This document shows positions 31,185-44,290 of a DNA stretch of 64,000 nt, piece by piece. Every line of letters starts with the position of its first letter. Position 1 is the first letter of the stretch. Both the position numbers and the translations under genes were made by a program. The stretch is from a virus. The notes below the pieces were generated by a model. That model did not search any database. It had not been told where the DNA came from and saw only the letters and a program-made list of their open reading frames with translations. The DNA is taken from the IMG/VR virus record IMGVR_UViG_3300024999_000042, one strand, 5' to 3'.

Positions 31185-32206
31185 TTAATCAGTTATTTCT
31201 ACTTTATATTTCATTAGAGAATTGTATACATTTTCTGGTATTAAATCATAATACTTTTTAGCTATTTCTTTTATCAAATTTTCTTTGTAATCTTTGTATT
31301 TATTAAATGCTAGTTTTGGAGTGGCATAGGTTCCTAGTTTTTTCTGAGTTCCAGTACCGTCACTGCATGAAGCTTGATATCTTCCGTTAGATTGTAAAAT
31401 ACACCTATTGGAAACTTTCCTCTATCATTTTGGTGTTTTACAAATAATACGTTTATATCACTAGGTACAAAACAACACATATTAGGACTGTATAATTTAT
31501 TACCTTTAATTAATATATCTTTATCAAGATGTATTTTTTGCCCATCAATTTTATAAAAGTTTTCTTTATACCACATAGCGAAATTTTGAAAGTTTAACCA
31601 TTCATCACAGACTGTGCATCCTATGTACGTTGGTCTATCCTCTTGTTTATTTTTATCATAACATCTTTGTATCATATTTCTCCATGTATAATATGCACTT
31701 TCGTAATTGACACAATTATATTCTCCAGTTCCCATATAAGAATTTCCTAATCCTAAATTTGTTGGATTTCTTACATCTCCACTTTTAAAACTACCATATG
31801 TACAATTTTTTATATGTCCATTATCAAAACGTACAATTGTGTTTTTGTAATTTATATAATCTATTATTGTCATCTTGCAACCAGATCTACTAATAATTGA
31901 TTCTCCTACTCTTTTATCTTTATTATTATTTATTTTTGTTTCATTTGCCTTTTTCTTACCATACAACATAGTGGCACATCTTTGACAATAATATTTTTCA
32001 TCATCTCTAACAGATTTTTTATAATCACACCATCTTATTTCTTTTAATATAAGATTTTTACAATCGATATTATCACATGTAACTTCTACTCCAACAATAG
32101 AACCATTTGGCAAATCTTCTACTTTAACTTCAAATTCATCTTTCCATTGGGTAAAGATATAACCTCTATCTTCGTACCACTTTTTGTTTTTAGGATTCCA
32201 TTTCAT
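31185..32206 (-). pseudogene. HNH-AP2-type homing endonuclease with a 1-nt frameshift before the C-terminal domain
   Basis: WRNMIQRCY, VCDEWLNFQNF, LDKDIL..GNKLYSP..CCFVP. The C-terminus (GRYQASC...LGTYATPKLAF...YKVEITD) continues in another frame from ~31390 to a stop at 31185. Confidence 0.78.
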
Positions 32207-34916: not shown

Positions 34917-36551
34917 TTATCTCTTCTTAATAATCCAACTAATTTTATTTGCTTTCACAACCGTATGAACATCAAACTTAGTTCTTAATACCTTACCATT
35001 AGCCCACCATTCCTTCTTTAACCAATCTAATTGTTTTTGAGTTGCAGGTTCATATTTCCACTTTGCTTTTCTATCTAAGAATGTACTATACTTTCTTGAT
35101 GCATATTTTTCTGCTTCCTCAATTAGATTAATTAAATTATCATCTTCAGATATGTAATCCTTTGTATTAATTCTATTTGTGGTATCAACCATGTACAATT
35201 CAAATATATTCTCCTGTAGATTCTTATAGATTGTATAATGTAAATCAGAAGTAATAGATAATGCAAATATTTCATTATCACACCGATACCAATTGAAATA
35301 CGCTTCGCTAAAATATTCACTCATATTAGTCTTAAATAATTTTAATTCTTCAGCAATTAATGCTAATCTCTCAATTTCTTTTTGCTTTGCTAATTCTTCT
35401 CTTTCTAACTTTTCTGCTTTATTCTTTTCCTCACGTTCAATTGCTTCAGTTAATGTTTCTTGATCTTTAATCTCTACACCAAATATATCTGTCATTGTCA
35501 TTAAATCATGCTTTCGCACTATATCAACAACATCAATTATTAAGCAATTAGATTTACTTTCTGATGTTCTGAGTCCCCTTCCTAAACACTGTACGTAGAG
35601 TATTTTACTCTTGGTCGGACGAGCAAATATAAGTGCTGTGACGTTTTCATTATCATAACCAATTGTAAGTATTCCACAATTTACAATGACTGGAAGCTCT
35701 CCATTATTAAATCTATCCATAACTTTTTCTCTTCTAGAATCTTCAATGGTAGAATCAATATAATCACAAAGAATTCCATTGTCATTAAATGTTTGAGAAA
35801 TATCTCTAGCATGAGCAATACCTGATGCAAATACAATAGTTGACTTTCTATCTGAAGCGTGTTTAATATAAGCCTCAACTATAATTTCATTTCTATTATC
35901 TGTATTTACCGCATCTTCCAACTGTCTCTGATTAAATTCTCCTGCTATTGTTTTTACATTTGATAAATCAGTTCCAGAATAAACATAAATTGCTTTAGGT
36001 TCACAAAGATAGTTATTTTTAATCATTTCTAATATTGGTTTTTGATAAATGATTCCATTGAATACTTTCTTCATTTCTAAATTCCACGGAGTAGCACTGA
36101 GACCAATTGCCTTTATATTAGGATTTAACTTATCTAGTATTTTTCTTATTTGTCCACAGGCAGCATGAGCTTCATCAAATATCACTAATTCAAAATCTCC
36201 ATGCTCAGACATTTGTTCAAGTCTAGTAGATTTAGAATGTGTTAACGATTGTCTGGACGCAACAACAATACGGTTGCCGATTTCATTCAATGACGCTTGA
36301 ACAGAACCAATATCTAAATCAGGATTAGTATTAAGTAATTTCTCGATAGTCTGCTCTCTTAAAATTGTTGATTGGATAACCAAAAGTACACGACCAACAG
36401 TATTATTTGCTATTGCAGACATTATGATGGTTTTTCCTGAAGCTGTTGGCAAGGATATGATTCCACTTTCTCCTTCTTTAAGATTGTTTACTGCTTCTAC
36501 ACTTTCTAATTGATATGGTCTTAATTCATATGCCATTTTAATAATCCTCAT
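34917..36551 (-). CDS. SF2 DEAD/DEAH-box helicase (ResIII/IRC3-like)
   Basis: LRPYQ, PTASGKT, DEAH, SAT, QCLGRGLR; C-terminal ATQKQL motif. Confidence 0.92.
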   Translation of the reverse strand: MRIIKMAYELRPYQLESVEAVNNLKEGESGIISLPTASGKTIIMSAIANNTVGRVLLVIQSTILREQTIEKLLNTNPDLDIGSVQASLNEIGNRIVVASRQSLTHSKSTRLEQMSEHGDFELVIFDEAHAACGQIRKILDKLNPNIKAIGLSATPWNLEMKKVFNGIIYQKPILEMIKNNYLCEPKAIYVYSGTDLSNVKTIAGEFNQRQLEDAVNTDNRNEIIVEAYIKHASDRKSTIVFASGIAHARDISQTFNDNGILCDYIDSTIEDSRREKVMDRFNNGELPVIVNCGILTIGYDNENVTALIFARPTKSKILYVQCLGRGLRTSESKSNCLIIDVVDIVRKHDLMTMTDIFGVEIKDQETLTEAIEREEKNKAEKLEREELAKQKEIERLALIAEELKLFKTNMSEYFSEAYFNWYRCDNEIFALSITSDLHYTIYKNLQENIFELYMVDTTNRINTKDYISEDDNLINLIEEAEKYASRKYSTFLDRKAKWKYEPATQKQLDWLKKEWWANGKVLRTKFDVHTVVKANKISWIIKKR

Positions 36552-36960
36552 TTTCTAAATTATTTATCATAATTATATTCATTGGTTTATCAATCTCATA
36601 TACATTACACTTAAACAATTCTTTAATGTTTTTATTAAACATATTTTTAAAATCTGCACCGCTTTTTTCACAATGCAATTCTGTAATCTCATCAGTAGTA
36701 AGAACGCTTTTATGTATCATAGTTAAACCTTTATTTGCATTATTCTTATCTCTTGCAACCATTGATACACTATAGCAATCGTCAAATCTCCAAGACTTAG
36801 GTTTAAGTATCATAGCGAATTCATTTTTATTTTCAACTACTAAAGTAATATCTTCATCAGAATTCATGATCTTTACAAATTTTGATGCCGTTTTTACTTC
36901 ATTAAATTTATTATAATACAACATATTATTCATCATCCTCTTCTCTTTTATTTCTTTCAT
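36538..36960 (-). CDS. hypothetical protein
   Basis: 140 aa coupled to neighbouring genes. Confidence 0.5.
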   Translation of the reverse strand: MKEIKEKRMMNNMLYYNKFNEVKTASKFVKIMNSDEDITLVVENKNEFAMILKPKSWRFDDCYSVSMVARDKNNANKGLTMIHKSVLTTDEITELHCEKSGADFKNMFNKNIKELFKCNVYEIDKPMNIIMINNLENEDY

Positions 36961-38062
36961 TCAATTCATCCTCAATCTGTTGCAAAACATCAATAGGTAT
37001 TTGTGAGCGATTTAATTCTTCTATTTCTTGAAGAGATTTTTGTTCTTCAGTTGTGAGTTCAATATTCCAGTAATTATCATTGTCATCCTCAAATGGGTCT
37101 TCAAATATATCAGGTTCGTCATCATCATTGTCATCAGATATTATTGGTAAAGGTAATGGTTTTTTGTTTTGTAGTCCTATTCCTTTGGGTATTGGTTCTA
37201 CAAATTCATTTTCTTTAACTAATTCTTTCTCTTTGTATTGCAATTCTTCATATTGTTTGAGTTTTTCCTCCAATTCTTTAATCTTAATATCTTTTTCACT
37301 TAAAATATTATTTATCTTTTGTTTAACACTTCTTTTTATATTAGATTTTATTTTATCAGTATATATCAACCCTTTCGCACTGACTTCTATTTGCAATTGA
37401 TAATTAAAATTCACCTCATCGTCCCAATTACCTATAAATGTGGTGCAATAATGTTTATCTGGTGTCAAGTAACTATTATTGTATCTAATCAGATGCAAAT
37501 CATCTTGCAATATCTTATTATATCTCTGAATGGTTCTAGAATCAGTGATTAATTTCTTTAATTTACCTTGAGTCAAATAGCCAAAATTACTTGTATTATG
37601 TGATACTCTTTTACAAGCAATAAAATATCTGATTATATTAAACTTGCTAATATTCTCACCTTGTAATTGATTAAATATATGTATTATGTCTTTATCATAA
37701 AGTTTAAAGAAATGATCTTCTGGTGGTCTGATTAATTCAATCTGGAATAATGAATCTTTACTTGATGTGGCTTCTTCAAAAGTTATCTCTTCATCACTTA
37801 AATCATAAAATTTAATTATATAATTCTTATCAGTTAAACCTTTCATAGATTCCTTTATTTTTAATACCATACCTCTATTGTTAGATGTATCAATTTTCAT
37901 CATGCTTGCTATTGCTTGAATTGAACATAGTCCAATTGATTTACTTAATTGATAATGTTTGTACATTAACACAAATACCGTAACTTCTTCATTAGAAATA
38001 CTTAGATCATCATAAATACTATTAGGTAACATAATATAGTTTCCCTTTGGATCATCGTTCAT
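36926..38062 (-). CDS. putative replication initiator / wHTH DNA-binding protein
   Basis: N-terminal YIMLPNSIY..LS..E..VF resembles phage Rep N-termini; acidic tail; upstream of the helicase. Confidence 0.4.
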   Translation of the reverse strand: MNDDPKGNYIMLPNSIYDDLSISNEEVTVFVLMYKHYQLSKSIGLCSIQAIASMMKIDTSNNRGMVLKIKESMKGLTDKNYIIKFYDLSDEEITFEEATSSKDSLFQIELIRPPEDHFFKLYDKDIIHIFNQLQGENISKFNIIRYFIACKRVSHNTSNFGYLTQGKLKKLITDSRTIQRYNKILQDDLHLIRYNNSYLTPDKHYCTTFIGNWDDEVNFNYQLQIEVSAKGLIYTDKIKSNIKRSVKQKINNILSEKDIKIKELEEKLKQYEELQYKEKELVKENEFVEPIPKGIGLQNKKPLPLPIISDDNDDDEPDIFEDPFEDDNDNYWNIELTTEEQKSLQEIEELNRSQIPIDVLQQIEDELNERNKREEDDE

Positions 38063-38620: not shown

Positions 38621-39358
38621 TTAACTTTTATTATTTTTTAATTCTAATGTATCAGCAATAAATTGTCTTCCTTCAATTGTTGATAATATCACATAATTAA
38701 TACTACCATCTTTATACTTTTTCTTTGTACCATTCTCAAAATATCCTTGTTTTATGTATTCATCTTTAACATAATATGCACGATTACTTGATTTTGTAAA
38801 TATATCTTTTAAGAATAATTGTTCATATATTTTATCTTGTGTAAACTTCATTTTGTATCCATCTAGTTTAAGCTTAGAATATGTATCTAAACAATTTAGT
38901 GTTCTATTGTTTAATTTAGCTTTTAATTTTTCTTTTTTAGGATTAGTTGGAAAACTTGCTTCTAGACCATTATTTCTAATTAGATTGTGTAAATATTTTG
39001 CATCAATGTTCTTACTAATTATTATCTTCCTACCATTCAGAACTTCTTCAATTGTATTTTCTACATTATATCCATTAGCAATAGAATCATATTTGTCAAT
39101 ATATTTACCTTCTACATATATTAATTGCATTTTAGTTTTATAAGGACTATCTAAATTTTGCATTTCTTCTATTATCTTAAATGTAAAATTTTCTTCACCA
39201 TATGTATTCCACGCTTTTTGCAATTTGTAACTATGATGAGAATTATTGTTTAGTTCATCTATATGTTCATCCCAACGTCTTTCTATATCTAGACTTTCAC
39301 CAATATAATATGTGTTGTTTATTTTGTTTATGATTCCATATATTCCTATTGTCATCAA
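38621..39358 (-). CDS. GIY-YIG endonuclease
   Basis: IGIYGI.NKIN...YIGES.DIERRW.EH; GYN. Confidence 0.88.
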   Translation of the reverse strand: MMTIGIYGIINKINNTYYIGESLDIERRWDEHIDELNNNSHHSYKLQKAWNTYGEENFTFKIIEEMQNLDSPYKTKMQLIYVEGKYIDKYDSIANGYNVENTIEEVLNGRKIIISKNIDAKYLHNLIRNNGLEASFPTNPKKEKLKAKLNNRTLNCLDTYSKLKLDGYKMKFTQDKIYEQLFLKDIFTKSSNRAYYVKDEYIKQGYFENGTKKKYKDGSINYVILSTIEGRQFIADTLELKNNKS

Positions 39359-39544: not shown

Positions 39545-39976
39545 CAAAATTATTTATATATTTGTAAAAGAATTTATTCAACAATATAAAAATCAATTCG
39601 AACCATTCCTAATCAAATACTCAATATACTTTTCCATCTCACTCTTTACTGCTAATCTTGCCTGATCAATTCCATGACCAGATTCTACATGATAAATTTC
39701 TAAGGATATGTTTTGTCTGAATGGGTTGGGAATTGTTGAACTGATTTCTCTCCATTTTGTTTTACCTTTTGAGAATGAATATGTACAGAATATGTTGTTT
39801 AGGATTTGATTGAAATCTTGAGCAATGGAATAGAGATTGGATATGGATTTGAGTTGTGATTTATAGTTTTGGAATTGATTTAGATTATTTTGTTAGGGGG
39901 TTACTCCTTTCTTTTATAGAAGAATTTCAACCTAATAACCTAATGAAAGTTATTAGATTGAAATATCAAAATATAT

Positions 39977-40201
39977 TTAAATTTCTCCATTAATATCATT
40001 TTCCATACACCAATCTAAAAATTCATCCTCTAATTTAGTTATACTGTCCTCTACCTCTTCTTCTGGCATTCCATTGATAATGGAATCTTCGTAAATATCT
40101 TCCTTGGTTTTATAACCATTAACTTTTAACCAAACACTAAAATCAGAATACTTTTCTCCATCAATTGTACGAACCATCACTCCATCAATTAATTCTTCCA
40201 T
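39977..40201 (-). CDS. small acidic protein
   Basis: 74 aa, GAGG RBS, strongly acidic. Confidence 0.55.
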   Translation of the reverse strand: MEELIDGVMVRTIDGEKYSDFSVWLKVNGYKTKEDIYEDSIINGMPEEEVEDSITKLEDEFLDWCMENDINGEI

Positions 40202-40291: not shown

Positions 40292-41578
40292 TTAGAATAA
40301 ACTACAGCCATCTGTCTTAAAATCTTTTATATATGTATTCCATTGTTCTACACTGAGTTTTAAGAATTTTCTTAAACATTTTTTGCATAAATATTGTTCT
40401 ACATCTCTTCCTAAAAATTTCATATTCATTGCGATAACATCATTCTTAGTAATTTTATTTCCACAAGTACAAACTTTATTGAAATATTTTGTAGCAATAT
40501 CTATTTCAATTCCTTTATGTTCCGCACATTCTTGTATAACCTCTTCATTTGGCTTTGGCCTAATAGCTCCACCATTCCAACAAAGAGGATATTCTTTTAC
40601 TGTACAATTCATAGCACACCATAATTGTCTTTCAATAAAATCTTCTTTTAGAAATTTTTGAAATCTTTCATACATCACTGGATAAAAATATTTATCTAAT
40701 ACCCATGTTGATTTTGTATAGTACGGACAAACTAAATGACAACCTACCCTAGAATATCCTTTTTTATATTTAGGATTGAATACTATATTGTTTTTTAGTG
40801 TATATAACCAAACATCTTCTTCTGTCCATTTTCTAATTGGAAGAATTCCCATCCATTCTCTCTCACCCCATCTATCATCAAATTTTTCATCTTGATAACC
40901 AGAACGAGTAGAACTTTCTTCATTTCTCATACCATAAAAGAATAAATATTTTTTATTATCATCTAAATATTCTTTTGTAGCTCCCTCTTTGTATAAAGAG
41001 CAACACCAACGATGATGGCGTGTTGGTATCCCTACTGTTTTAATTTTTTGATAAAATCCTTCTTTTGGACTTATAGTTATACAATCTGGAATAGTTTTAA
41101 TCATTTTATATGTATCGGAGCAATCCATAGAAGTATTATTAAACATAATTATAGATTTAATATCTAATTTAGAATTAGTTTGTAATGTTTTATTAACTAA
41201 ATATCTTGTCAATTCACTATCTTTGCCACTAGAAGTAAATATAATTGGCGTATATTCTTTATACTTTTCAATACTACTTTTAATCAAATTGATACTTTCA
41301 TTCTCTAATTCCTCCAATCTTCCTTTATTTCTCTCTATTGTTTCCTCCCAAGATTCAATCTCATAAGCTTCTTTCTTATAATCACTAGCAGTAATATTTA
41401 ATTCATCATCAATATGAATTCTTAAAACCTTATGAATTCTACCTTCAACATCATAACATTTAATAATTGATCTATCTAACCAATAATATCCCTCAACTAA
41501 ATTATACTTCTCAATATCTACACCTTTATCTTTTAGAAATCCCAAATAATCTTTAAATACTAAATTCAATACATACAC
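40292..41578 (-). CDS. PAPS reductase (CysH/DndC-like PP-loop) family protein with C-terminal Cys domain
   Basis: SSGKDS PP-loop, RWCC..YKE, GMR.EES..R, PIRKW...DVW, GYSRVGC..CPY; C-terminal CTC...CKKC...GCSLF. Confidence 0.88.
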   Translation of the reverse strand: MYVLNLVFKDYLGFLKDKGVDIEKYNLVEGYYWLDRSIIKCYDVEGRIHKVLRIHIDDELNITASDYKKEAYEIESWEETIERNKGRLEELENESINLIKSSIEKYKEYTPIIFTSSGKDSELTRYLVNKTLQTNSKLDIKSIIMFNNTSMDCSDTYKMIKTIPDCITISPKEGFYQKIKTVGIPTRHHRWCCSLYKEGATKEYLDDNKKYLFFYGMRNEESSTRSGYQDEKFDDRWGEREWMGILPIRKWTEEDVWLYTLKNNIVFNPKYKKGYSRVGCHLVCPYYTKSTWVLDKYFYPVMYERFQKFLKEDFIERQLWCAMNCTVKEYPLCWNGGAIRPKPNEEVIQECAEHKGIEIDIATKYFNKVCTCGNKITKNDVIAMNMKFLGRDVEQYLCKKCLRKFLKLSVEQWNTYIKDFKTDGCSLF

Positions 41579-41607
41579 CTTATTTATTTACATTAAGCAA
41601 ATAATAA

Positions 41608-41772
41608 GGAAAACATAACTAATTACCCAAACTGTGGCTTTTACATGTACTGCATACGCAAATACACCACAATGCAAATGGTATATGTTTTTATGTTTCT
41701 CACACGACTTTATACGGCATCCTTACGCATCGGATTTGTAAGATTATTGATTGCTCTGTTCTCAATGCCGAT
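41608..41772 (-). ncRNA. candidate structured cis-regulatory RNA upstream of the PAPS reductase gene
   Basis: Stems CGGCAT/ATGCCG, TTGA/TCAA, TCTTAC/GTAAGG, GAAACATAA/TTATGTTTT, ATATACCA/TGGTGTAT. Confidence 0.45.
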
Positions 41773-42078
41773 TCAACAACCAGTTATATCTGGATCGTAT
41801 GTAATGAATTTATTCTGTTCAATTTCTAATAATTTAAATATCCAATAATATTTATCATTACGATATTCTATTGAATTTATTTTATTAGGATTGTGTCTAT
41901 TATTTTTGATTTCTTGTGTGAATGCATCTGTGATGGTTATTCCTTGATTTAAATTATGAATGACATTTTTGCAATTGTTGTTATTAAATTTTGCTATATT
42001 TTGTTTTACTATTATGATTCTCACCTCCTTTCTTATTAATAATTTTGTACAGATTTGTACCTGTGAATATTGTATCAC
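41773..42078 (-). CDS. hypothetical protein (true start probably near 42015-42018)
   Basis: AAGGAGGTG RBS at ~42022-42030 followed by ATC/ATA; the promoter overlaps the track start. Confidence 0.4.
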   Translation of the reverse strand: MIQYSQVQICTKLLIRKEVRIIIVKQNIAKFNNNNCKNVIHNLNQGITITDAFTQEIKNNRHNPNKINSIEYRNDKYYWIFKLLEIEQNKFITYDPDITGC

Positions 42079-42097
42079 TTTGTATTAATATTGTCAA
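42069..42097 (-). promoter_or_regulatory. sigma-A type promoter heading the left arm
   Basis: TTGACA-17-TACAAT with TG. Confidence 0.65.
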
Positions 42098-42119: not shown

Positions 42120-44290
42120 AAATTAATTATTCAAATGCTATTAAAATATTTTCATCAATTTTTAGATGGTCGTATATATGATATAATTGCATCGTCTTGA
42201 GTTGTAAAGTGTACGCCCCATATAGTAGAAGGGATTATTAGAGTGTGATATAATTGGTTAGTATCAAGGGTTTAGATGGTGTTTATAGGATTAGATATTT
42301 TGATTTTTTGGATGTATAATTATGAATTATTATTTGATGTTTTTGTTCGATAGGATTGAGATTAATTTATGATTTGAATTTTAAATTGGATGGAAATTTA
42401 TAGATCATAGGATGAATTAATAAAGGTTGAATATGTTAAAGAAACTGTATGAGAGTAGGATTTGTAGGTTATTTTGTATGATTGATTTATTGGATATTTA
42501 GTGAGATTATTATATTGATTTATGAGATTTTATTGTTTAATTTGTAAAATTGTTTGACTTTTGATAAGTTTTGTGAATTGGAAAATGAATTTATTTGGCT
42601 GAAAAATGTTGTGTTGATTATGTTTTTGCGATGTGAGAACGAAGGGGGAAATTGGGGAGTAGATTGTGGTGAGATGAGATTTATTTTGTGAGATTGAAAA
42701 TTATTTTAATTTTGTGTAATTTTAGTATTGACAATTTTGTTAAAGTGTGATTTATATTTATTTTATGAAATGGCTGTAATCGGCTCGTAGTTTGGGTTTT
42801 GTAACGAAGTAGATGTACTGTGTCGAATACTGTCGAATAAAAGGAGATAATGTTTGTAATCATAGCCGGGGTATATGCCAACTTTGGCATGGAAATTGAA
42901 AGTGAATACAGAAGCAGGTTTTTGCTATAGGCTAATACTATGACAAACTGAAAACAGTATGGGCCGATTATCTGCCGAACCCTACAAACCGCATTATACA
43001 AGGGTTCTTGCTCAAATCTGAATGTGACACAATGTACTTGTGTAACATTCGGTAAGAATAGATGGTACAATTGTATGGGTCGGATGAATTGAAGAGCTTA
43101 AAAGGGCTATTTTGTGGCAGAAACGAGAAGTGGATGAAGGAGCATAATTGTCCTGGACTTGATACCTGCTAATGATAGCAGAACACAAGATCATTGGGCA
43201 TTAATTGCATACGTATATGAGTATATACGTTTATACGTACAAAATATCGTTTTGCATAACATAGGCGAAGTTGTTGAAGTATTAATACTTTGAATATCAA
43301 ACTATATTATAATCAAACTAATATCACATAACCTCAAAATACAATCATACTACTATATAATACAGTCACTTGACTACATCACACGTTCATTATAATCATA
43401 AACACATTATCCTATGATAATAATCATATCACATGATCAATGTGATCACATCCAAATAAACATAACCATTAAGTTATAGTAAATATAATGCATTACTAAT
43501 ATTATCTAATATTACCTACTAATAACTATAATCTTATGCAACACCAACCATATTTACCTATGACGATATATAAACAAATCATTATATCACTAATCACTTA
43601 TACCATACATAATGAATACATTATAATGCTAATCCATACAATCCCTATCAACTTACTATACTATAAACACTTTACCGAACTAAAGGATTCGCAAATCATA
43701 CACAATTATAAATATCCATCATCCTGCATAAATACTCACATAGCATATACCTATGCCATCATACACTAATCCATATACCTATATCAATACCAACTAAACC
43801 AACCAAAATACTATACATTAACCAAATCTTAACTCCAATAAACCATAATAACTCTAATCAATTACCATGCCAAACAACCCAAAACTACCATACCCTGGTT
43901 GGGTACTAAATCAAAATTTCCACACAAACCCTAAAATAAAGTTTTATAGAGTAACCTATACCTCAAATCCTCAAAACGCTTACAATGCCCTTTACGTGCC
44001 TCTAATACCTATTACATTATTTATTGATTCAACCCCAAATCTCTATCATTTTTAACATTGGCATACAATTTGCTAGTATAATACAGTAACAAATAATTAA
44101 TACTATTATAATACAGATTGACATTATCAATCATGTCCAATCATAATCTATCATATCCAAAACAATATCACACTATCAGTATAAACAAATAATAAAATAT
44201 CATAAATCCTTAAATAAAATAAAGGTATATCACTAACCAATCACGAATATACTACATAGTAGTATAAAAACAATTTAAATCAAAAGGAGA
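42120..44290. other. divergent non-coding junction with mirror-image G+T / C+A skew and a central palindrome
   Basis: Plus strand is G/T-rich to ~43150 and C/A-rich from ~43290; ACGTATAT-gagt-ATATACGT at 43211-43230. Confidence 0.75.

Follow-up and report, generated by a model that had tools for sequence, protein, structure and literature searches.

A structured RNA leader closed by a long-range helix over the start codon precedes phage PP-loop genes and is predicted to couple their translation to an upstream reading frame

The opening of a paired start site by an upstream reading frame is known already. In MS2, the 'Min Jou' long-range pairing couples translation of the replicase to translation of the coat gene, and rpmI-rplT of Escherichia coli is coupled likewise. 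In the leader-peptide translational attenuation of ermC and cat in the Firmicutes, the position of the ribosome on the leader ORF sets the pairing of the downstream SD and start. The RNA leader described here precedes phage genes for BrxP-like and SspD-like PP-loop enzymes and is predicted to control them. It is unusual in that the stop codon of the upstream frame can lie in a hairpin loop, that a multi-domain insert of ~230 nt is closed by a helix over the start and that the SD is hidden in a hairpin of its own. Literature searches gave no description of such a leader.

The window, which is the whole stretch of DNA that was analysed (64,000 nt; IMG/VR record IMGVR_UViG_3300024999_000042), is a large AT-rich phage-like contig from groundwater metagenomes. 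The sequencing runs with the window sequence are groundwater and soil metagenomes, with no RNA run among those listed, and blastn against a phage collection gave no match. The minus strand carries an operon in which a sigma-70-type promoter is followed by a small upstream ORF, a PP-loop gene, a second small ORF that is conserved only in the closest relatives and a terminator-like hairpin (Table 1). The spacer between the upstream ORF and the PP-loop gene is richer in GC than its surroundings (0.39 vs ~0.25). The non-coding spacers that flank the operon (42225-42750 and 39750-39975) are nearly G-free on the minus strand, with a plus-strand GC skew of up to 0.9.

Table 1 Features of the operon and its leader, listed in the direction of transcription.
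Feature	Position in window	Strand	Details
Sigma-70-type promoter of the operon	42069..42097	(-)	11/12 consensus matches plus TG extension
Upstream small ORF	41773..42024	(-)	~80-83 codons; SD GGAGG 42028..42024; stop TGA 41775..41773
Long-range helix (LR), 5' arm	41797..41811	(-)	In the last codons of the upstream ORF; conserved UUCAAU-like box
Hairpin P0	41780..41793	(-)	CCAG / CUGG in the window
Spacer, upstream ORF to PP-loop gene ORF			194 nt
Three-way junction	41715..41770	(-)	P1 41770..41765 with 41720..41715
P2 hairpin	within 41764..41747	(-)	Directly follows P1
P3	41743..41738 with 41726..41721	(-)	Adjoins the 3' strand of P1
Linker	41692..41714	(-)	Conserved GUGAGA motif, 41703..41698
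Domain 2	41610..41691	(-)	Closing helix P4 41691..41684 with 41617..41610
Irregular long hairpin inside domain 2	41673..41666 with 41638..41631; 41665..41661 with 41651..41647	(-)
SD-sequestering hairpin	41578..41609	(-)	Anti-SD CCUUAU pairs with AAGG of SD AAGGUG (41581..41576)
LR, 3' arm	41562..41576	(-)	Spacer, UUG start (41569..41567) and first two and a half codons
PAPS-reductase-family PP-loop gene	40292..41569	(-)	425 aa from TTG
ORF as listed for the PP-loop gene	40292..41578	(-)	428 aa
Downstream ORF, same operon	39977..40201	(-)	74 aa
Terminator-like hairpin closing the operon	39924..39964	(-)	18 bp

A scan for function of roughly half the larger ORFs at 26-51 kb gave homing endonucleases, a helicase and a Rep-like gene, besides ORFs without assigned function. 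The homing-endonuclease-like genes (38621-39358 and 31334-32206; GIY-YIG type, HNH type) lie among the replication genes, namely the helicase (34917-36551) and the Rep-like gene (36926-38062). No BREX, Dnd or Ssp partner was recognised among the scanned neighbours, and a tblastn search of the whole window gave no second PP-loop gene; to this extent the gene stands alone, as a first-pass annotation of the locus had claimed. The same annotation had placed the gene in the PAPS-reductase family, which was borne out by the match of residues 112-281 to Pfam PAPS_reduct (PF01507; E 3e-26).

Across an alignment of 21 homologs, invariant features include the SxGKDS motif of the PP-loop (S116, G118, K119, D120 and S121), a CC pair, a GCxxxCP motif and, at the C-terminus, GCxLF. 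The protein belongs to phrog_424 and most closely resembles the N-terminal half of PADLOC BrxP (E 8e-37), the match covering model positions 74-341 of 779 only. A full-length BrxP architecture within a BREX cluster was not found, as the model match is partial and the scanned neighbours include no BREX partner. The protein does not qualify as an equivalog-level PAPS reductase or CysH either, since the NCBIfam matches are all far under their cut-offs (TIGR00434, 39.8 bits vs 165; NF002537, 47 vs 154) and the C-terminus is GCxLF in place of ECGLH, the C-terminal catalytic motif of PAPS reductase and CysH. The nearest solved structures are CysD and CysH (E 1e-8 to 1e-4). Homologs of ~420 aa (n = 956) come mostly from Clostridia-type phage and metagenome contigs. 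The true start of the gene was taken to be the TTG in Table 1, judged by 120 homologs that begin MNLVFK, and most of the 21 aligned homologs begin at this position. For four database proteins (P0033, P0040, P0066 and P0071), the called ORFs run 5' through the SD hairpin and give false N-termini (..SFVIEINKVKELNL); their real start is the TTG that follows the SD.

Homologous leaders were found at 21 distinct loci (alignment A13) in phage contigs, prophages and metagenomes, and represent about a dozen lineages. All 21 lie directly upstream of a PP-loop gene, in the same orientation relative to it. The upstream region is conserved across a homolog subfamily, and not as a coding frame: a protein-coding reading of the leader was ruled out by 1- and 2-nt indels between lineages. 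The close relatives L001-L007 have leaders that are 94-100% identical and gene bodies that are ~65-70% identical, a mosaic pattern, so that the identity of these leaders proves little. Diverged copies were found in L100, L014, L145 and L088 using nhmmer and a first covariance model (R1). The leader is directly upstream of the gene for 10 of the 10 proteins looked up in the 'ALSMK' subfamily; the leader is missing from the P0085 subfamily, in which the spacer measures 70 nt. Among 88 further, more distant PAPS-homolog loci (mostly viral contigs, plus 13 genome loci), the leader was absent from 84, as judged with R1 or R2, and present in L014, L016, L088 and L100. Matches to R2 occur in at least 2 of 150 representative genomes from the family of L088's genome, a count that is a floor because few candidates per genome were scored, and matches to the window protein in 9 of 384 genomes. 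A pattern specific for the platform gave 8 viral and 9 metagenome stretches, few of them new. The matches listed for a looser first pattern scan of viral sequences were mostly due to chance; nhmmer sorted out L145, L158 and L190. No copy of the leader was found away from PP-loop genes in the loci searched.

This leader precedes either the BrxP-like protein of ~420 aa or an SspD-like PP-loop protein of 261-272 aa, the short protein being found after the leader in L145, L231/L232 and L242. The short protein of L145 matches phrog_424 (E 2e-27) and, in PADLOC, the SspD model (E 6e-8), while BLASTP gives no similarity between it and the window protein; the 261-aa protein of L242 was read by eye as a relative of the L145 protein. 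The presence of the same leader before two dissimilar types of PP-loop protein links the RNA to what the gene does and not to one gene lineage. Searches of Rfam 15 gave no match in the whole window. At E up to 10, the region 41400..42000 gave three noise matches only, to LhrC (23.6 bits vs a threshold of 110), a snoRNA and a CRISPR repeat. Based on its covariation, the leader is an RNA family that has not been catalogued.

The surroundings of the leader vary. Tandem PAPS_reduct paralogs are present at L237:53-2751 (339 and 416 aa) and in L246 and L247 (420 and 417 or 310 aa), and in L237 the leader is found only before the second copy. Directly after the tandem genes of L237, a 91-kb phage-like contig, a gene at L237:3198-4251 matches Pfam PF05183 (eukaryote-type RNA-dependent RNA polymerase). 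A tubulin-family (PF00091) gene is upstream of the leader-bearing locus in L249 (L249:1-217), and an IS605 OrfB/TnpB gene is directly downstream of the one in L238 (L238:2993-4159).

The leader is ~250-255 nt long, lies within one mRNA and spans 41562..41811 on the minus strand of the window. The first-pass annotation had described a structured leader of two domains, beginning with a P1-P2-P3 three-way junction and ending ~25 nt before the RBS. The region is indeed structured, but the element is larger than was claimed and is wired differently. The three-way junction was confirmed: its topology is common to the per-sequence folds, with P3 always abutting the 3' strand of P1, and P1 is formed by at least five pair types across the 21 sequences. 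P3 also stood, CTTAC/GTAAG being its form in the window. P2 is a hairpin as had been proposed, but the TTGA/TCAA register is not that of the family, in which GA../..UC is shifted by 3 nt. The junction strands (UUGAG, CAAUA/CAAUAGA and ACCGU) are nearly invariant while the helices covary. A helix of UUCAAU with AUUGAG at the P1/P2 junction, which would compete with this fold, is possible. A further hairpin, P0, was revealed when the alignment was extended 5'; three of its pairs each have compensatory changes in 10-12 sequences.

The linker that follows the junction has a GUGAR-like motif (GUGA, GGGA or GGAG), which sits 8-10 nt before the A-run that opens P4. Most of the 21 leaders share this motif, the exceptions, in which none is evident, being L016, L235, L242 and L249. 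In the window type, the GUGAGA of the linker could pair with the 5' strand of P3 or with the anti-SD. P4, the closing helix of domain 2, uses the second copy of AACAUA and covaries. The pairings drawn earlier within this domain (GAAACATAA/TTATGTTTT and ATATACCA/TGGTGTAT) had to be abandoned, as they have no pair changed on both sides, which was likewise the result in 500 of 500 shuffles. The interior of domain 2 differs between classes and is a single long hairpin in the window class and branched or variable in the L088 class. The structure also does not stop short of the RBS. The hairpin that follows domain 2 contains the SD and covaries, including changes of the SD and anti-SD themselves (UAGG/CCUA in L250), and the LR contains the start codon. 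Since P4, the SD hairpin and the LR are contiguous, with joints of 0-1 nt, the initiation region is paired throughout from the SD to codon 3. In the predicted ground state, both the SD and the start codon are double-stranded.

Covariation of the six helices was apparent in the aligned upstream regions. In a structure-blind MAFFT alignment of the 21 leaders, 82% of cells are paired over the 51 pairs of the six-helix model, vs 38-50% when the partners are slid. There are 144 double-change cells, vs 20-43 in the slid controls, which keep the relatedness of the sequences and stay low; none of 500 shuffles reaches the observed value, a statistic that is inflated by relatedness. RNAalifold independently recovers P0 and P1, and RNAalifold with CM-guided alignments gives P1, P4, two inner helices and the SD hairpin, all with compensatory changes. 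The single-sequence MFE of the spacer is unremarkable (z = -0.94), and the evidence for structure is thus comparative.

The LR consists of 12-15 bp, with arms ~220-230 nt apart, and closes the whole element. In the window, 14 of 15 positions are paired, with one U-U mismatch (-16.5 kcal/mol, z -4.5). A duplex of -10 to -17 kcal/mol is formed in 21 of the 21 sequences, with z of -2.7 to -6.6 vs shuffled arms. The LR alone is 81% paired, vs 31-57% when slid, and has a covariation score of 0.257 vs at most 0.114 (MAFFT alignment A14). The arms covary between classes (ACAUAC/GUAUGU vs UUCUUC/GAAGGA). The trend is exemplified by L242, which has a GUG start and a different gene, and in which the 5' arm of the LR has changed to match (UUCCAC/GUGGAA). 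As in systems with long-range coupling, coding sequence of the upstream cistron is thus predicted to pair with the downstream initiation region.

In all 21 leaders, an ORF runs into the 5' arm of the LR and has its stop in or next to P0. In 16 of the 21, the frame closes 2-7 nt into P0, usually with a UAA or UAG that forms the first loop bases. The four window-type sequences and L250 have their stop 13 nt further downstream, at 18 nt from where P0 begins and 2 nt short of P1; the positions for L228 and L250 were read directly from the sequences. Eleven lineages have an upstream ORF (uORF) of 13-23 codons, most with a GGAGG-like SD, and these putative short leader ORFs with their own SD resemble those of leader-peptide attenuation; the window has instead an ORF of ~80 codons. 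In L233, a promoter-like TTGACA-17-TAATAT box, read from the sequence, lies directly before the uORF. The upstream ORF of the window class is conserved as a protein, with homologs upstream of the leader in L001, L007, L228, L225/L226, L100, L014 and L145, and its product matches no Pfam, PHROG or NCBIfam family. In the window, its GGAGG SD has no canonical start at the proper spacing: a GTG at 42024 overlaps the SD, and an ATA at 42015 is in frame. Relatives have TTG or ATG where the window has this ATA. A 101-aa reading of the ORF from 42078 was rejected because the start would fall inside the promoter.

In L233 and L251, the UUCAAU box is retained although the reading frame across it differs, which indicates a constraint on the RNA and not on the peptide. 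The last two codons of the upstream ORF make up one side of the P0 stem, the 5' strand, and covary with the opposite side. On this comparative evidence, the C-terminal peptide pattern of the upstream ORF follows from the RNA pairing. Programmed bypassing of the T4 gene 60 type was considered and rejected, as the gene has a canonical SD and spacing and the take-off and landing codons mismatch across lineages.

These features suggest that the leader probably acts in cis as a ribosome-coupled translational control of the PP-loop gene. With the uORF ending at P0 and the LR lying over the start region, ribosome coupling leads over a plain metabolite riboswitch. A ribosome translating the end of the upstream ORF would unwind the LR, and in most lineages a terminating ribosome would still cover most of its 5' arm (about 10 nt). 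Melting of the LR would free the start codon and weaken the adjacent SD hairpin, so that synthesis of the enzyme would depend on, and keep pace with, translation of the upstream ORF. Initiation could occur by entry of a new 30S or by re-initiation of the terminating ribosome, which the fold would place beside the start codon, and the conserved junction may tune the coupling by holding both arms together. We infer the direction of control from the geometry alone. When the first 35 nt were masked, the unpaired probability of a start-proximal AAGGAA rose from 0.00-0.06 to 0.6-0.8 in the five second-class leaders for which this stretch was scored in place of the true SD. In the window, the hairpin of the true SD barely opens on 5' masking in the thermodynamic model (0.09 to 0.17), and the SD-opening step is accordingly uncertain. 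A further point against coupling is that the upstream ORF of the window has no canonical start suitably spaced from its SD. In the window type and L250, the terminating ribosome would cover P0 and P1 and not the 5' arm of the LR; stalling at termination therefore cannot be a universal trigger, given the stop 13 nt further downstream in these sequences.

The alternative that survives best, and that we regard as possible without favouring it, is a riboswitch or protein-sensing leader, in which the P1-P2-P3 junction, alone or together with domain 2, is the binding site for a small molecule or a protein. Candidate proteins would be the PP-loop enzyme itself or the small upstream protein, and binding would stabilise or release the LR and SD pairings, with the upstream ORF being secondary. 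The first-pass annotation had suggested a riboswitch-like element. A conserved, covarying, SD-burying cis-acting leader that is always upstream of a PP-loop gene agrees with that suggestion, which had missed the uORF and the LR. The near-invariant joining strands between covarying helices are as expected of aptamers, and an SD-occluding expression platform is present, both being generic features of riboswitches. The strict tie to one functional gene class, with two types of protein that lack BLASTP similarity, points the same way. In addition, ~190 nt of conserved junction and domain 2 are not needed for simple coupling, and since the invariant junction strands and the GUGAR linker are beyond the reach of coupling, there is room for a ligand- or protein-sensing function. 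Against this reading, Rfam gave no family match even with E relaxed to 10, no ligand suggests itself and domain 2 is highly variable between classes; sensing alone also leaves the placement of the ORF stop and the LR unexplained. Sensing is, however, compatible with ribosome coupling. One combination of the two, which we consider speculative and somewhat less probable still, is a phage-borne sensor whose junction binds a metabolite or a product or protein of the operon and gates the hand-over of the ribosome from the stop in the P0 loop to the UUG, 230 nt away but brought alongside by the fold. Such a hand-over, the counterpart in bacteria of shunting or re-initiation, would control a DNA-modification or anti-defence enzyme.

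It is improbable that the fold serves as constitutive damping, keeping a potentially harmful enzyme low or protecting the mRNA with no conditional switch. As damping would predict, the SD and start are fully paired in every sequence, and each of the 18 leaders that precede the ~420-aa gene retains the weak UUG start, as does L145; an ORF that ends in or next to P0 in 21 of 21 leaders, with most uORFs having their own SD, would have no explanation, and 250 nt with a conserved junction is more than mere damping accounts for. The annotation had also suggested a cognate RNA partner of the enzyme, for which no support was found. As a separate trans-acting RNA, the element would be a substrate, guide or cofactor of the PP-loop enzyme, a reading that fits the strict co-occurrence with PP-loop genes and the fact that many PP-loop enzymes act on RNA. 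We consider it very unlikely, since a scan of the window found no promoter or terminator within the leader, the element lies entirely inside the mRNA, where its 5' arm is part of a coding region and its 3' arm includes the gene's start codon, and the loci searched hold no copies away from these genes. Arms of 12-15 bp that flank about 220 bp might instead be DNA inverted repeats of an invertible switch and not an RNA helix, but this is barely credible given that five nested helices between the arms covary independently, G-U pairs in the helices outnumber A-C mismatches (60 vs 36), the arms change along with the start codon of the gene that follows and all 21 copies face the same way with respect to the gene.

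Ribosome-coupled control as tight as that predicted here suggests that the product of the gene does harm, or that it is required only at a particular time or in a particular amount. The leader provides a tractable system for the study of ribosome-dependent RNA switching in phages of the Firmicutes, and a marker for finding these PP-loop genes. In addition, it corrects the annotation of the N-terminus for many proteins in databases, where the reading frame has been wrongly extended through the SD hairpin.

The genes that follow the leader resemble two described groups of PP-loop enzymes. The window protein is like BrxP of type 4 BREX, with a match that is partial and a gene that is phage-borne, and the short protein of L145 is like SspD and DndC, the PP-loop enzymes of DNA phosphorothioation, through its match to SspD. 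The leader itself shares with translational riboswitches a covarying junction, invariant joining strands, an SD-burying helix and an association with one functional gene class. It differs from them in that it matches no Rfam family, has no known ligand and has a translated-looking upstream ORF as an integral part of the fold. Like the ermC and cat leaders, it has in many lineages a short upstream leader ORF, usually with its own SD. In ermC and cat, control passes through a relay of four adjacent segments, whereas here the leader ORF is predicted to pair directly with the start region across ~220 nt; the leader is also much larger, with a conserved junction and no known inducer, and the peptide appears to be largely dictated by the RNA pairing. 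A further parallel is with the MS2 Min Jou pairing and rpmI-rplT, in which sequence of the upstream cistron likewise pairs with the downstream initiation region and translation of the one opens the other, as is predicted here. There is no sequence relation to these systems, and the leader belongs to DNA phages or prophages of Clostridia. Unlike in MS2 and rpmI-rplT, the arms here enclose a conserved multi-domain RNA of ~220 nt, a separate hairpin buries the SD, and the upstream frame can be a uORF of 13 codons with its stop in a hairpin loop.
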